Shown piece after piece: positions 45,091 to 49,655 of a DNA stretch of 64,000 nucleotides. The number at the start of each line of letters is the position of its first letter. Within the stretch, counting starts at the first letter, position 1. The notes beneath the pieces were generated by a model. The model saw only the letters and a list, made by a program, of their open reading frames with translations, ran no database searches and was not told the origin of the DNA. The position numbers were made by a program, and so were the translations under genes. This stretch comes from Pseudomonas phage HHBS18_1, in the sequence record PQ287651.1, one strand, 5' to 3'.

Positions 45091-45672
45091 TTACAAGAAC
45101 GCCATGATTCTATCTCTATCTGCATGGCGGTACAGATTGAAGCAAGGTACGCCTCTGGAGGACGCCAGTTGCCAAGCGGTCCTAGTCCCGCCTTCTGGAA
45201 TCCCATTGTGGTCTGTCTTGCTCCAGCACACCAAGAACTTGCTAGGCGTGTTGAGATCGATTCCCAGTACTTGGAAAACGTTCCGAGTGTGGGCTCGTCT
45301 TGCGAACGGGCTTAGAACGGGTTCCCCGTCATTTCTGACAGAATTCCAAGCTGGGTGGATTTGACTGGCAATGCTTCTAGCTTCTTCCCATTCATCTGGC
45401 AACTCTTCCTCTGGCAGGATGGTAGCTCCAAGCGTCTCCGTTATCTGGTACTGATTGAAGCCGGGAGACGGAAGATAGATTTCTGCCATAGTCCCTCCCT
45501 TGTTATTGGATATATAATCCAGCCAGCCCGATTCGAACGCTGAGTCCGCTCCCTTCGCTCCTCCTGACCGAAGAATAAAACCTTGTTCTGCCAGTTTACG
45601 GCCTACCTCTCGGAGGATACCCCATTCTCTGTTAGGAGTGTCCCTGCTCCCGACTCCTGTATAATATCTCAT
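45091..45672 (-). CDS. DprA/Smf-like or SLOG-family Rossmann-fold protein
   Basis: YTGVGSRDTP...ILRSGGAKGADSAFESG pattern. Confidence 0.5.
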   Translation of the reverse strand: MRYYTGVGSRDTPNREWGILREVGRKLAEQGFILRSGGAKGADSAFESGWLDYISNNKGGTMAEIYLPSPGFNQYQITETLGATILPEEELPDEWEEARSIASQIHPAWNSVRNDGEPVLSPFARRAHTRNVFQVLGIDLNTPSKFLVCWSKTDHNGIPEGGTRTAWQLASSRGVPCFNLYRHADRDRIMAFL

Positions 45673-45980
45673 CGTCTCACCATTTGTCCCAGTTCTCCGT
45701 ATGTAATCCAGTGGTGACGATAATCCCCTTCTTGGTTGGTGTACTCCACTAACACCGGATAGAAGTTGTCTTCGTGGTCTATGCTTACCACCTTGCATTC
45801 ACATCCTCTGGGAATAGTGTATCCATCACTGCCCATGGTTAAGAGCATTCCCCGGTACACGTCTTTTATCTCTAGCTCACCTTCTCCAGACTCTTCAAAC
45901 TTGAGTCTCAATTTCTCGATTATTTGAGCTTGCAAATAGAGAAGTTCGTACGCTGTTAAGTTGTCCAGATCAATAGACAT
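45669..45980 (-). CDS. hypothetical protein
   Basis: coupled ORF. Confidence 0.45.
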   Translation of the reverse strand: MSIDLDNLTAYELLYLQAQIIEKLRLKFEESGEGELEIKDVYRGMLLTMGSDGYTIPRGCECKVVSIDHEDNFYPVLVEYTNQEGDYRHHWITYGELGQMVRR

Positions 45981-45981
45981 G

Positions 45982-46131
45982 TCACTCCCTCCCTTCTAGT
46001 TTCTTGAATGCCTTGTCCAGCTTGGCTAGATGCTTATCCAACTTGTCTAGCTTTTTATCCTGATAAAGCTGGAACGCCTCCGAGCCCGGGGCCAACCAAG
46101 TCCCCTTATACTTAATTGCACCCCGGATCAT
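45982..46131 (-). CDS. small coiled-coil protein (49 aa)
   Basis: RBS aggaggagat. Confidence 0.3.
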   Translation of the reverse strand: MIRGAIKYKGTWLAPGSEAFQLYQDKKLDKLDKHLAKLDKAFKKLEGRE

Positions 46132-46142
46132 ATCTCCTCCTA

Positions 46143-46816: not shown

Positions 46817-46825
46817 CTCTCCTCC

Positions 46826-48508
46826 TTATACGCCGTTCTTAATCCGGTAGCGGATCGACTCTAGATCATTATTCTTCAGGTCTTCGGTGTTCCATTTTCC
46901 GTCTTTGAAGAACGTCCTCAAGTGCCCAGTCTCTTCCTCTTCCTTCGTTACATTGTCTTTCAGTCGGAGGAACCGTCCGTTCTCTTGGTCTCGGTACACT
47001 TTCAAGAGACCTTTAGCCGACTTCTTCTTGCTGTCAGTTTTCGGGTCTTTGAAGATCGCGATACCTTCACCGTTCACTTCCGTGTAGGTGGCTTTCACTG
47101 CAAATCCGAAAGTATCCCGGGTGTTGCACTGATAGGTGTAGCTACCAACTCCGAACACTACGTTCAGGGAAGCAAAACCTTTCTCCTTCAAGCGCTCCAA
47201 GATTTTAGCTGCTCGGCGAGTTGTAATGGAATCTCCATAGATCAAACCGATATGAGAATCGAGCATCTTATAGCCTGCTTCGTTCACAGTACCGCCGAAG
47301 GTTTCCCACAGAACTTGGATAGCTCCTTTTACCTGCGCCTCGCTCACTTCTTCAAGTTTATAGCCAATTACATACTCGTACTGGTCCCACTCGGTTGGAA
47401 TGACCTTGAAATATTTATCTTCGAACTCTAGGACAAAAGCATCATTACCATTGACCGCATCCATGATATCCCAGTGCTCAAGAGATTCAACAACTTCCAC
47501 ATCGCCCAGTCCGCAAATAACTTCCACGGGGTCACCCGAGTCTGGTCGAATAACCAGCTTGCCATCGCGTTCCATGATCTGATCCTTGATCGACGGCAGA
47601 ATGTCAGTAAGCACGCCCCAGAAGTCGAAGCTGTCTGCCACGTACGACAGAATACCACTCGGGAACTTACCCATCAGTTCAACAAGGAATCGACGTTCTG
47701 CTTCCTCACGACCACCTTCTCCATCCTTCATTTCTTTCTCAATGCGGAGGATGTTACTAGTAGCTACAGCGTGCTCAGTCGCAGGTACGGAGCAAGCTAC
47801 CAGACCAGTTGCGCTATAGTAATCCTCAGCATAAATAGCTGCTGCCAAGGTGTCCGAGCCTACGAACGAGGTCAAGTGACCAACACCACTTCGGGCCGCG
47901 TCTTCGATCCCACTCATGCCCCGGGCACTGAAATCGTGGAACTGAACGGACAACAGGAAATCGTCATAGCATCCAGTATGATTCGCGTAGTATCGGCCCA
48001 TAGCTGCGTATTCTGCGGCAATGGTAGCGTTGGTTGCAGTCTTCCAAGTCATAGCCGAAATCAGCGTCTCATGGTAGTTAACCAACCAATAGAACTCCGG
48101 CAGGGTGTTCTTGATAGTAAGCACCGGTACGCCCATAGGAACGCTAACGCCCTCGGTCAAAGACTTGACCTCCAGAGGCAGATAGCCGAGCTTGTGTAGG
48201 GCTCGAAGCTGCTCCACAGCCTCCATTTCCCGGCCAAAATAGCCAGTCAGGAACCGGGAATACCGGCCAACGGCGTTCTCTTCTTCAGCCGCGAAGAAGC
48301 CTTCCCAAGACTCTACGATCTCCATCCAAGCGGCCCGTCCGCCGACCCACTTGAGAGTGCCGTCGTAGAAGTCGGTGGCATGCGTCTTTCGATAAATCTT
48401 ATCGGAGCGAGGGGTCAGGTTGCTATAGACAAGCTGAGTTCCTTCCGAGTACATGGAGCCGTGTCCAATCTTGTACCCATCAGTGGAAAGATGCGGCAGA
48501 ATTTTCAT
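46826..48508 (-). CDS. nicotinamide phosphoribosyltransferase family protein (NAMPT/NadV-like; possibly a NARP1 Namat-type enzyme)
   Basis: LSTDGYKIGH (TDSYK motif); LPLEVKSLTEGVSVPMGVPVLTIKNTLPEFYWLVNYHET; FHDFSARG; SVPATEH; VIRPDSGDP. Confidence 0.85.
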   Translation of the reverse strand: MKILPHLSTDGYKIGHGSMYSEGTQLVYSNLTPRSDKIYRKTHATDFYDGTLKWVGGRAAWMEIVESWEGFFAAEEENAVGRYSRFLTGYFGREMEAVEQLRALHKLGYLPLEVKSLTEGVSVPMGVPVLTIKNTLPEFYWLVNYHETLISAMTWKTATNATIAAEYAAMGRYYANHTGCYDDFLLSVQFHDFSARGMSGIEDAARSGVGHLTSFVGSDTLAAAIYAEDYYSATGLVACSVPATEHAVATSNILRIEKEMKDGEGGREEAERRFLVELMGKFPSGILSYVADSFDFWGVLTDILPSIKDQIMERDGKLVIRPDSGDPVEVICGLGDVEVVESLEHWDIMDAVNGNDAFVLEFEDKYFKVIPTEWDQYEYVIGYKLEEVSEAQVKGAIQVLWETFGGTVNEAGYKMLDSHIGLIYGDSITTRRAAKILERLKEKGFASLNVVFGVGSYTYQCNTRDTFGFAVKATYTEVNGEGIAIFKDPKTDSKKKSAKGLLKVYRDQENGRFLRLKDNVTKEEEETGHLRTFFKDGKWNTEDLKNNDLESIRYRIKNGV

Positions 48509-48564
48509 GTTATTTCCTCCTGTTGTGTTGAATAGGCCCAGACTACATCAATCTGGGCCTCCTG

Positions 48565-48783
48565 TCAATATTCGACTTCTTCTACTGGCAGCGTCAGCAC
48601 AGGGTAGATGCATGGAAGGCGCAGCAATGGTTGCTTCTTGCTGTGGAAGTCTTCCCAAAACTTATCGTGCATCGTCTTGTACCGAGCGTCCAGTTCCTCC
48701 TTGGTGTCGAACTTCTCCACCTTGACAACCCTCTTCTCTGGAGCCGAACGCTTATACTCTACAATCCAGATACTCAAGCTCAC
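48565..48783 (-). CDS. hypothetical protein
   Basis: ORF. Confidence 0.4.
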   Translation of the reverse strand: MSLSIWIVEYKRSAPEKRVVKVEKFDTKEELDARYKTMHDKFWEDFHSKKQPLLRLPCIYPVLTLPVEEVEY

Positions 48784-49655
48784 AGGCGTTCCGCCTTAGA
48801 GTATTCAACCGGAATGACAGTTAGCGCTTCGTGCTCTTTTTGAGGGAGCGTGTCCGATGTGTAGATGCATCCGAAGGAATCCAGCAAGCAGTCGATACCC
48901 TTACTGAAGATTCCATGAGTGACGAACAGGTCAGGGAGCACTTTACTGTACTCTCTCAGGGCCTTAGATACGCTTCGGAATGTAGCACCTCCGTCGCAGA
49001 TATCGTCGATCACCAGAAGCGGAAGTTCAGGATCGATATCCGAAGGATTCAGAATTTCAAAGCCTTCGATTTTACCAGTTTGCAGGTCTCGCTTCTTATT
49101 ACAACGGATGATGACTCTGGCTCCAGTTTCCTTTGCAAACTGCTCAGTCCTTTTAGTAGCTCCGATATCTGGGGCTACAAGCTGGTACTGTTCCCAATCC
49201 GACCGATCCAACAGTCCACTGAATACAGACGCCTGAGACACAACCTCTACATTGTTAATCAAGTGTAGAGTAGCCTCACTGTGAGGGTCCACAACGATGA
49301 CCCTATCATACCCAGCCGAGTTAATCAGATTGGCGAACACTTTCAGGCTAAATGCGTCCCCGGGATTGCATCGACGGTCTTGTCGGGCATACGGGACATA
49401 TCCCAAAAGAAGAGTCATGTGTGGTCGGCCCATTGCCGCTCGAATAGCCTCAGTGACATTAAGAAGTGCCATGATATCGTCACTGTTCTGAATCTGAGCT
49501 TTAACGTTCACAAAAGACCCTCCACTGGCATCAATTCCACTTACATTGACACCCACCTCACCGCCCGGGAATGTCCAGACCTTTGCCTCCTTCATAGGAA
49601 GTGCAAAACCCGGTTCTTCGATAGTAGCAAGGTAACCTGTTACGTAGCTAATCAT
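48780..49655 (-). CDS. ribose-phosphate pyrophosphokinase (PRPP synthetase) family protein (Prs or ADPR-PP synthetase-like)
   Basis: FPGGEVGV, YARQDRR, VDPHS, LVAPDIGATKR, LLVIDDICDGGAT. Confidence 0.8.
   Translation of the reverse strand: MISYVTGYLATIEEPGFALPMKEAKVWTFPGGEVGVNVSGIDASGGSFVNVKAQIQNSDDIMALLNVTEAIRAAMGRPHMTLLLGYVPYARQDRRCNPGDAFSLKVFANLINSAGYDRVIVVDPHSEATLHLINNVEVVSQASVFSGLLDRSDWEQYQLVAPDIGATKRTEQFAKETGARVIIRCNKKRDLQTGKIEGFEILNPSDIDPELPLLVIDDICDGGATFRSVSKALREYSKVLPDLFVTHGIFSKGIDCLLDSFGCIYTSDTLPQKEHEALTVIPVEYSKAERL

Follow-up and report, generated by a model that had tools for sequence, protein, structure and literature searches.

A probable NARP1-AP pathway with a SLOG-fold neighbour in a Pakpunavirus of Pseudomonas

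Results

The region from 45091 to 49655 of Pseudomonas phage HHBS18_1 (PQ287651.1; the window is the whole stretch of 64,000 nucleotides that was analysed) very probably encodes NARP1-AP, a pathway already known from phages as a counter to bacterial defences, here in a Pakpunavirus. We infer the roles of its enzymes from sequence identity (35-45%), from the conservation of catalytic residues and from the order of the genes; the Adps, Namat and Adpp activities themselves have been demonstrated for homologues of Bas63, SPbetaL1, Vibrio phage Gary and DyoEdafos. Host defences such as SIR2, TIR or SEFIR NADases would split NAD+ into ADP-ribose (ADPR) and nicotinamide, Adps (48780-49655) would make ADPR-PP by moving a pyrophosphate group from ATP to ADPR, and Namat (46826-48508) would join ADPR-PP to nicotinamide, yielding NAD+ directly without an NMN or NMNAT step. 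RES-type defences (aRES) would instead convert NAD+ and phosphate to ADPR-1''-phosphate, which would be unusable by Adps, and Adpp (46143-46622) would strip off this phosphate and let ADPR re-enter the pathway.

Organisation of the gene string

The Pseudomonas phages JG004 and JG005 were 95.9% identical over the region, at least 80% of which was covered by 119 phage records. The ORF check of the window recovered the four genes of a preliminary description of this DNA, with the motifs quoted there, all on the minus strand, as well as four small conserved ORFs (72, 65, 49 and 103 aa) interleaved among them. The string was composed as follows:

48780-49655, minus strand: Prs-like gene, predicted Adps, 291 aa, with YARQDRR and VIDDICDGGAT
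48565-48783, minus strand: 72-aa ORF between Adps and Namat, phrog_7663 (unknown function)
46826-48508, minus strand: NAMPT-like gene, predicted Namat, 560 aa, with TDGYK and RPDSGDP
46619-46816, minus strand: 65-aa ORF between Namat and the macrodomain gene, phrog_6997
46143-46622, minus strand: macrodomain gene, predicted Adpp, 159 aa, with HQANCFNTMGSGIA
45982-46131, minus strand: 49-aa ORF, PHROG match phrog_6391
45669-45980, minus strand: 103-aa ORF, PHROG match phrog_8023
45091-45672, minus strand: stand-alone SLOG-fold protein, phrog_768 ('DprA-like'), 193 aa

The Prs-like and NAMPT-like genes, previously placed two genes apart, were separated by the single 72-aa ORF, whose start overlapped the Adps stop by 4 nt; an overlap of the same length joined the 65-aa ORF to the start of the macrodomain gene, and the SLOG gene lay within the same co-directional, overlapping string. 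When loci were compared, the 72-aa and 49-aa ORFs were found in Pakpunavirus loci only, the latter with 94-100% conservation, and the 65-aa ORF was also Pakpunavirus-specific. The 103-aa ORF was 97% identical in one related locus (L002) but just 37-39% identical in four others (L003-L006), whose neighbouring genes kept at least 90% identity, and is a variable allele among Pakpunaviruses. Genes for an Rnl1-like ligase, a P-loop kinase and a metallophosphoesterase were located directly upstream of the string.

The Prs-like and NAMPT-like genes

The Prs-like protein matched Pfam Pribosyltran_N and phrog_619. By BLASTP it was closer to the Adps of Gary (36% identity, 127 bits) and of DyoEdafos (35%, 103 bits) than to E. 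coli Prs (28%, 73 bits), and its score was far under the cut-off of each NCBIfam Prs equivalog. It shared with Adps proteins the motifs DPHS, K-x-RD-xx-TG-x-I, DDICDGG and VTHGIFSKG, which are absent from E. coli Prs, and had no Prs C-terminal tail; the residues R91, D93, H125, D163, K187, R189, D217, D218 and D221 were invariant. A Namat gene was adjacent in 77 of the 80 Adps loci, in agreement with the published figure of 97%. We assign this gene as the putative ADP-ribose pyrophosphate synthetase (PRPS-like), the first enzyme of NARP1.

The best PDB matches of the NAMPT-like protein were 9w5x and 9w5w, both SPbetaL1 Namat (E=2e-112, 380 bits; 9W5X is the structure tied to the Namat paper), as compared with 170-177 bits for true Nampts in the same search. 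The alignment to SPbetaL1 Namat was full-length with a conserved catalytic core, including RPDSGDP, and identity was 41% to both the Gary and the DyoEdafos Namat (338 and 347 bits). The motif of the selectivity-clamp helix (SCH), GVGSYTYQCNTRD, was of the Namat type, whereas Nampt-type loci had GMGGGLLQ. The protein differed from SPbetaL1 Namat by an insertion of about 55 residues (335-389) and by a Cys in place of the second clamp-helix aromatic, Y396; this position varies among working Namats, because the validated DyoEdafos Namat has a His there. The gene is assigned as a Namat, the predicted nicotinamide ADP-ribose transferase (Nampt-like) and second NARP1 enzyme.

Classical salvage, in which the Prs homologue would supply PRPP, the NAMPT homologue would form NMN and a host NadR/NadD-type enzyme would complete NAD+ in a NARP2-like manner, is very improbable. 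It could draw on TIGR01251 (ribP_PPkin), just over its cut-off for the Prs homologue, on NF006629 (nicotinate phosphoribosyltransferase), over its cut-off for the NAMPT homologue, and on the in vitro NMN-forming activity of SPbetaL1 Namat, about half that of human Nampt according to the Namat paper. However, the Prs homologue groups with Adps, and SPbetaL1 Adps was reported to give no product in the PRPP-synthetase test and to form ADPR-PP from ADPR and ATP. The NAMPT homologue is closer to Namat than to Nampt by a factor of two, and in the published clades phage Nampt accompanies an NMNAT gene and Namat accompanies Adps. No NMNAT was annotated across the whole genome of JG004, 96% identical over the region, which bears out the earlier statement that none lies nearby. 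The Namat scores and clamp motif, the grouping of the Prs homologue with Adps and the lack of an annotated NMNAT upheld the earlier preference for NARP1 over the NadV/NMNAT route; taken together with the Adpp evidence below, they therefore indicate that the NARP1 call was right.

The macrodomain gene

The 159-aa protein matched Pfam Macro and phrog_335 ('phosphatase'). It aligned over its full length with the biochemically characterised Adpp of Gary (41% identity, E=3e-32), and in sequence searches weakly matched the yeast Poa1p structures 6lfu, 6lfq and 6lfs as well as TARG1/OARD1. Adpp dephosphorylates the ADPR-1''-phosphate produced by the aRES defence, and all three Gary genes (Adps, Adpp and Namat) are required against aRES (Osterman et al. 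2026, bioRxiv 10.64898/2026.01.28.702374). Table S1 of that preprint names JG004, PAK_P1, PAK_P2, PAK_P4 and PaP1, with near-identical Pakpunavirus operons, and lists the macrodomains of JG004, PAK_P1, PAK_P2 and PaP1 as NARP1-associated. By visual comparison, the PAK_P2 sequence in this table was the same as the window protein and that of JG004 differed at two residues. Putative aRES systems have been listed in P. aeruginosa strains. We predict that the macrodomain protein is Adpp, the Poa1p/TARG1-like ADPR-1''-phosphate phosphatase of NARP1-AP.

The macro fold by itself leaves the substrate unfixed, and the family had homologues in 2,955 phage records, including T4, mostly with no adjoining NARP1. 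Instead of feeding NARP1, the macrodomain and conceivably also the SLOG protein might belong to the adjacent RNA-repair module, for example to dispose of the ADPR-1''-P or Appr>p that 2'-phosphotransferase chemistry leaves as by-products, or might take ADP-ribose off modified proteins or nucleic acids. Such a role seems unlikely, although the ligase, kinase and metallophosphoesterase lie directly upstream and a trio of the same kind precedes the NARP1-AP genes of Gary, and although the domain is similar to DarG and TARG1, both of which strip macromolecules of ADP-ribose. Its closest characterised cellular homologue, Poa1p, acts in tRNA splicing (Osterman et al. 2026). Against this, the Gary protein, with its 41% identity, turns ADPR-1''-P into ADPR, and aRES is overcome only when it acts together with Adps and Namat. 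In the published survey, 15% of NARP1 phages had a macrodomain gene no more than two genes away from NARP1, and among our 80 Adps loci 16 had one within 10 kb. The two roles are also mutually compatible. It is established that T4-type Rnl1 repair leaves no 2'-phosphate, which counts against the RNA-repair proposal.

The preliminary description had considered a macrodomain beside a NARP-like pair to be undescribed, but NARP1-AP is exactly that arrangement (Osterman et al. 2026). Its suggestion of a macrodomain that supplies the pathway with ADPR was sound in spirit; the demonstrated substrate is ADPR-1''-P and not the ADP-ribosylated peptides or cADPR that it had named.

The SLOG-fold protein

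The mechanically called ORF (45091-45798, 235 aa) ran into the upstream 103-aa gene. The most likely start is the ATG at 45672 (MRYYTGVGSR), which overlaps the stop of the 103-aa gene as ATGA and gives a protein of 193 aa, the full length of the homologues. The SLOG fold of this protein, a bare Rossmann domain, was confirmed, but the protein is not a true DprA: Pfam DprA scored 21 bits, below its cut-off of 29.6, over 48 residues only, and the profile match to DprA was not significant (E=0.29). Nor is it a LOG-type enzyme. Among the solved proteins searched the family had no significant sequence match, nor did it match ThsA, DprA, LOG or YpsA, and its clade has its own invariant residues (H106, H128, R130, N131 and Q134) in an inserted helical region.

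SLOG homologues had Adps-Namat nearby in four distinct arrangements: besides that of the window, SLOG-Adps-Namat with a 4-nt overlap (L050), Adps-Namat-x-SLOG (L019) and an additional one (L108, L111 and L133). The gene lay within 10 kb in 9 of the 80 Adps loci. Most homologues were away from NARP1, which was present within 5 kb in 4 of the 40 lineages of SLOG loci and absent within that distance in the other 36. By a rough estimate of chance, the recurrence of this proximity in four arrangements was about ten times more frequent than expected. Proteins of the same clade were fused to NADAR and DUF4326, and none to recombination domains.

These observations bear on whether the SLOG protein could be unrelated to NARP1, that is, a DprA-like ssDNA binder or recombination mediator, or a nucleotide enzyme of DNA metabolism, brought close by the crowding of early-gene clusters. 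We regard this as possible yet doubtful: the DprA scores, the bare Rossmann domain, the recurrent proximity in four arrangements and the fusions to domains tied to ADP-ribose chemistry all argue against it. Most likely, the SLOG protein is a binder of, or enzyme for, some ADP-ribose-derived molecule, a view that the comparisons support in part. Neighbourhoods of viral SLOG, Macro and NADAR processing ADPr derivatives have been proposed computationally, with SLOG co-occurring with or fused to the other two and predicted to act against ADPr-derived signals (Iyer, Burroughs, Anantharaman and Aravind 2022, PMC9503650). That survey, which predates the discovery of NARP1, made no link between SLOG and NARP1.

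Comparison with known systems

Gary shares with the window the three enzymes and the upstream trio of ligase, kinase and metallophosphoesterase. The gene order differs, being Adps-x-Namat-x-macrodomain in the window, with its four interleaved small ORFs, and Adps-macrodomain-Namat in Gary. A SLOG gene follows the macrodomain gene in the window, whereas none was found in the 18 kb around the Gary operon; in Thalassavirus relatives, a SLOG homologue sits in quite another part of the genome. Escherichia phage Bas63 and Bacillus phage SPbetaL1 have the same Adps and Namat pair (Osterman et al. 2024), in two-gene operons described without a macrodomain gene.

A precedent for an accessory enzyme inside a NARP1 operon is RyDEP-NARP1 of Mycobacterium phage DyoEdafos, where RyDEP converts 2'cADPR or 3'cADPR to ADPR for Adps and Namat (PMC13232231). 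This is the role that had been proposed for the extra genes here, but RyDEP is a RyR-domain glycosidase unrelated to the macrodomain or SLOG, and a search of the 80 window-related Adps loci found no RyDEP homologue. The fold of the SLOG protein is common to viral stand-alone SLOG domains (PMC9503650) and to the SLOG sensor of Thoeris ThsA.

Discussion

The paper on the Pakpunavirus Adele annotates NARP1 together with this macrodomain gene, and notes that NAD+ still drops when cells are infected with PaP1, a related phage, although the genes are present (PMC12846349). The SLOG protein is not a required component of the pathway; the three-gene operon of Gary, which has no SLOG gene, is functional in E. 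coli (Osterman et al. 2026). The three-enzyme NAD+-rebuilding pathway has already been described, and its SLOG neighbour, a plausible candidate accessory in the handling of ADP-ribose derivatives, is the sole open part.

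Organisation of the gene string

The window is of Pakpunavirus origin, and its 5.1-kb region of interest showed 95.9% identity to Pseudomonas phages JG005 and JG004, with 119 phage records covering at least 80% of this region. The genes of interest formed a closely packed string, all transcribed in one direction from the minus strand, in which several neighbours overlapped by 4 nt, as at the ATGA junction of the 103-aa ORF with the SLOG gene, and every sequence motif quoted in the preliminary description was found in the window.

Genes of the string, in order of transcription (window coordinates)
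First: 48780-49655, minus strand, Prs-like protein (Adps), 291 aa
Second: 48565-48783, minus strand, small ORF, 72 aa
Third: 46826-48508, minus strand, NAMPT-like protein (Namat), 560 aa
Fourth: 46619-46816, minus strand, small ORF, 65 aa
Fifth: 46143-46622, minus strand, macrodomain protein, 159 aa
Sixth: 45982-46131, minus strand, small ORF, 49 aa
Seventh: 45669-45980, minus strand, ORF, 103 aa
Eighth: 45091-45672, minus strand, SLOG-fold protein, 193 aa

The mechanical ORF of the SLOG gene (235 aa, window 45091-45798) extended into the gene before it; a start at MRYYTGVGSR, with the ATGA overlap, gives a 193-aa form that matched its homologues from end to end. The model of this gene differs between public records, being a 132-aa CDS in JG005 (locus L001, 6083-6481) and a 235-aa CDS overlapping the gene upstream in JG004 (locus L085, 5961-6668). 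The RefSeq record of JG004 also has a plus-strand CDS (L085, 9385-9603) at the site where the window and JG005 have, on the minus strand, the conserved ORF of 72 aa that separates Adps from Namat. The JG004 CDS is probably a strand error of the older annotation. The 103-aa ORF behaved as a swapped allele, with 97% identity in one Pakpunavirus locus and 37-39% in four others, while its flanking genes kept 90-100% identity across the same loci.

A promoter and terminator scan gave weak consensus matches only (about 19 vs 11 expected) and found no convincing terminator within the Adps-to-SLOG string. The signs of the GC and AT skews changed at about 38000-40000 and about 60000 of the window, which is consistent with changes of gene direction where a plus-strand structural module and a minus-strand early block adjoin, an arrangement also shown by the map of JG004.

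The Adps and Namat proteins

The 291-aa protein scored 127 and 103 bits against the validated Adps proteins of Vibrio phage Gary and Mycobacterium phage DyoEdafos, respectively, but 73 bits against E. coli Prs and just 68 bits against the top Prs structure in the PDB. On the NCBIfam Prs subfamily and equivalog models it reached 50-107 bits, where the cut-offs are about 300-540; NCBIfam holds neither an Adps nor a Namat model, and the protein therefore appears there only as an atypical Prs. It shared the motifs DPHS, KxRDxxTGxI, DDICDGG and THGIFSKG with the Adps proteins and lacked the C-terminal tail of Prs. From these scores and motifs, rather than from a full tree, we assign it to the phage Adps clade and not to the cellular Prs clade. 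The residues with reported catalytic or acceptor roles in Adps are Arg87, His121, Asp161, Lys185, Asp212, Asp213 and Asp216 (PMC13586617). When these positions were located in the window protein through its motifs rather than by superposing structures, R91, H125, D163, K187, D217, D218 and D221 were invariant in five Adps proteins (the window, Gary, DyoEdafos and the viral contigs L050 and L019).

The 560-aa protein gave its match to the Namat structures of Bacillus phage SPbetaL1 (9w5x and 9w5w) with E=2e-112 and 380 bits, whereas bacterial and human Nampts scored 170-177 bits only; 9W5X is the structure named in the Namat structure paper. It was 41% identical to each of the Namats of Gary and DyoEdafos, which were employed in the functional reconstitutions (Osterman et al., bioRxiv, 10.64898/2026.01.28.702374; PMC13232231), and in the alignment it showed 44-46% identity to the Namats of four NARP1 contexts vs 31-33% to Nampt-type proteins of T4-like contigs. 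Its similarity pattern places it in the Namat clade, not in the Nampt/NadV clade.

The selectivity-clamp helix of the window protein was GVGSYTYQCNTRD, which follows the Namat pattern GxGS(F/Y)TYQ, and the same helix read GMGGGLLQ in the Nampt-type proteins from T4-like contigs. In the SPbetaL1 Namat the clamp consists of the SCH-helix aromatics F392 and Y396 and of the SCL-loop stacking residue R40, a position at which Arg, Lys or Tyr are permitted (Namat structure paper). The equivalent of F392 in the window was a Tyr, so that the aromatic was kept, and that of R40 was Lys37, followed by Ile and Tyr. The equivalent of Y396 was Cys in the window, His in DyoEdafos and Tyr in Gary; because DyoEdafos has a His there, this position varies among working Namats. 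Taken as a whole, the clamp motif is of the Namat type, with one named residue different. Compared with SPbetaL1, the window protein also had about 55 extra residues (residues about 335-389), inserted after the RPDSGDP segment and before the C-terminal half, and the Namats of Gary, L019 and L050 were of similar length (537-569 aa).

The Adps and Namat genes lay on one strand with a 72-aa ORF as the sole gene between them. No NMN adenylyltransferase was found among the 173 annotated features of the JG004 genome, as read from the annotation and not from a dedicated profile search, and the gene required by the alternative NARP2 route (Nampt plus NMNAT) is thus missing from that annotation. With proteins of Adps and Namat type by sequence and no NMNAT annotated in JG004, the assignment of the pair to NARP1, as proposed in the preliminary description, stands. 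Namat was next door to Adps in 77 of the best 80 Adps loci listed among viral contigs, in line with the 97% published by the discoverers of NARP1. The predicted activities of the window pair are the conversion of ADPR and ATP to ADPR-PP by Adps and of ADPR-PP and nicotinamide to NAD+ by Namat.

The macrodomain protein

RES-domain defence proteins (aRES) convert NAD+ to nicotinamide and ADPR-1''-phosphate, which NARP1 cannot use (Osterman et al., bioRxiv 2026, 10.64898/2026.01.28.702374). According to the same study, 15% of NARP1 phages have an added Poa1p-like macrodomain phosphatase, Adpp, that restores ADPR, the resulting pathway being named NARP1-AP; the phosphatase activity on ADPR-1''-phosphate and the rescue from aRES were demonstrated for the Gary Adpp only.

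The macro gene of the window was separated from Namat by one 65-aa ORF, within two genes of the NARP1 pair, and its product scored 22.1 bits on Pfam Macro (cut-off 22). The protein was 41% identical to the purified and assayed Gary Adpp (E=3e-32, 153 of 159 residues), and Poa1p structures gave weak matches to it. The His and Asn of the Poa1p-type HQxNC motif were present as H23 and N26 (AHQANCFNTMGSG), and the same residues were mapped onto Poa1p, as Poa1p-type catalytic residues, in the paper describing Pakpunavirus Adele (PMC12846349). On this similarity, we identify the window macrodomain as the Adpp of NARP1-AP, a predicted ADPR-1''-phosphate phosphatase. Putative aRES systems have been catalogued in P. 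aeruginosa strains, and the host range therefore fits.

Table S1 of Osterman et al. (10.64898/2026.01.28.702374) contains the macro proteins of JG004, PAK_P1, PAK_P2, PAK_P4, PaP1 and about 70 other Pseudomonas phages, and by visual comparison its PAK_P2 sequence matched the window protein; the Adps, Namat and macro genes of Adele had been annotated earlier (PMC12846349). The central novelty claim of the preliminary description, that a macrodomain beside a NARP-like pair was undescribed, therefore fails, although its idea that the macrodomain feeds ADPR into the pathway was right in spirit. The system itself was known before, and the phage group carrying it had already been catalogued.

The neighbouring RNA-repair block

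Three RNA-repair genes lie directly upstream of Adps on the minus strand (window 49665-50084, 50095-51012 and 51954-52508). They encode a P-loop kinase (AAA_33, phrog_2071), an RNA ligase resembling Rnl1 and a metallophosphoesterase. Counterparts of all three, with 38-43% identity, precede NARP1-AP in the unrelated phage Gary (locus L083, 6397-8356). In DyoEdafos a polynucleotide kinase comes immediately after Namat. Within 10 kb of Adps, the kinase was found in 13, the ligase in 10 and the phosphoesterase in 16 of the best 80 loci listed. At 52929-53489 of the window lies a gene for a 186-aa protein annotated as a metal-dependent phosphohydrolase, with weak RelA/SpoT-hydrolase similarity (E about 4e-4) and no match in Pfam. 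In Otagovirus-like loci it accompanied the block of RNA-repair and NARP1 genes. It is probably the counterpart of the Pakpunavirus protein named small alarmone hydrolase in the Adele paper (PMC12846349).

The SLOG protein

The last gene of the string encodes a single 193-aa domain with the Rossmannoid SLOG fold. Its family profile had no sequence-level match among solved proteins in the PDB, the best being DprA with E=0.29, and Pfam DNA_processg_A scored 21 bits over residues 44-91 only (cut-off 29.6); a true DprA was rejected because the score was below the cut-off and there was no sequence-level match. LOG-type phosphoribohydrolases have the motif PGGxGTxxE with a catalytic Glu. The equivalent segment here was EGGTRTAWQLA, with no Glu after the Thr, and neither NCBIfam nor Pfam gave a LOG match for the protein; the LOG-type hydrolase was rejected because the catalytic Glu motif was absent.

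Most members of this very large family were stand-alone proteins with a length of about 180 aa; it comprised 5,854 clusters at 50% identity and was represented in 1,297 phage records. Invariant residues of its own included H106, H128, R130, N131 and Q134, which lay in an inserted helical segment. Clade-mates were fused to NADAR (four proteins) or DUF4326 (two proteins). These fusions and the NARP1 neighbourhoods agree with a survey in which viral SLOG domains were found near, and fused to, Macro and NADAR, and in which a role for these domains in the processing of ADPr-derived signals was predicted (Iyer et al. 2022, PMC9503650). In our reading, the SLOG protein probably handles some ADP-ribose-derived molecule.

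The 80 best listed viral loci with a SLOG homologue corresponded to 40 lineages by shared gene content, and Adps-Namat was within 5 kb of the homologue in four of these; the other 36 lineages among the loci listed had no nearby NARP1, which speaks against a strict link. Where the genes did occur together, several arrangements were found. SLOG followed the macro gene in Pakpunavirus and Otagovirus-like phages, the order was Adps-Namat-x-SLOG in contigs L017, L019 and L030, and it was SLOG-Adps-Namat, with a 4-nt overlap and then a DUF4326 gene (Pfam E=1.8e-18), in L050; a fourth arrangement came from the Adps loci (L108, L111 and L133). On several further contigs SLOG and NARP1 were 20-30 kb apart. 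Among the best 80 Adps loci listed, a SLOG homologue lay within 10 kb in 9 vs a macro gene in 16. The enrichment of SLOG-NARP1 proximity was about tenfold, a rough estimate obtained from the presence of SLOG in 2.6% and Adps in 3.1% of phage records, a 10-20 kb window and genomes of about 100 kb.

The unrelated 85-kb viral contig L050 carried, at 9995-13934, a compact series of a thymidine-kinase-like gene, SLOG, Adps (overlapping SLOG by 4 nt), Namat, a small ORF and DUF4326; L099, L117 and L140 likewise had DUF4326 no more than 5 kb from Adps. A contig resembling Escherichia phage vB_vPM_PD06 (L052) had a SIR2-family gene (14144-14956, Pfam E=1.3e-22) about 4 kb downstream of the SLOG homologue, with Adps-Namat about 31 kb away in the same genome.

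Also against a strict link, the Gary operon beats aRES and Nezha in E. coli without a SLOG gene (10.64898/2026.01.28.702374), and none was found within 18 kb around that NARP1-AP operon. The SLOG protein is not a core component of NARP1 and may be an optional feeder for it. A tentative and rather unlikely reading is that it would be a further NARP1 accessory, like Adpp or RyDEP (the accessory glycosidase of the DyoEdafos operon), binding or cleaving a derivative of NAD+ that is no substrate for Adps and releasing ADPR. Such a molecule might be an isomer of cyclic ADPR, an ADPR signal with a linked base or amino acid, or another non-canonical NADase product. No RyDEP homologue was present in the best 80 Adps loci listed.

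Significance

NARP1 and NARP1-AP account for phage survival under NAD+-depleting immunity. That Pakpunaviruses have the extended pathway, as already published for this very operon, is worth knowing, since they rank among the leading candidates for phage therapy against Pseudomonas. What our finding adds is a modestly interesting and testable lead on a large stand-alone SLOG family, which lies repeatedly beside Adps-Namat and is fused to NADAR or DUF4326. If the accessory reading were true, the operon would beat a wider range of defences, and the SLOG substrate, once assigned, would be another layer in the phage-bacterium conflict over NAD+.
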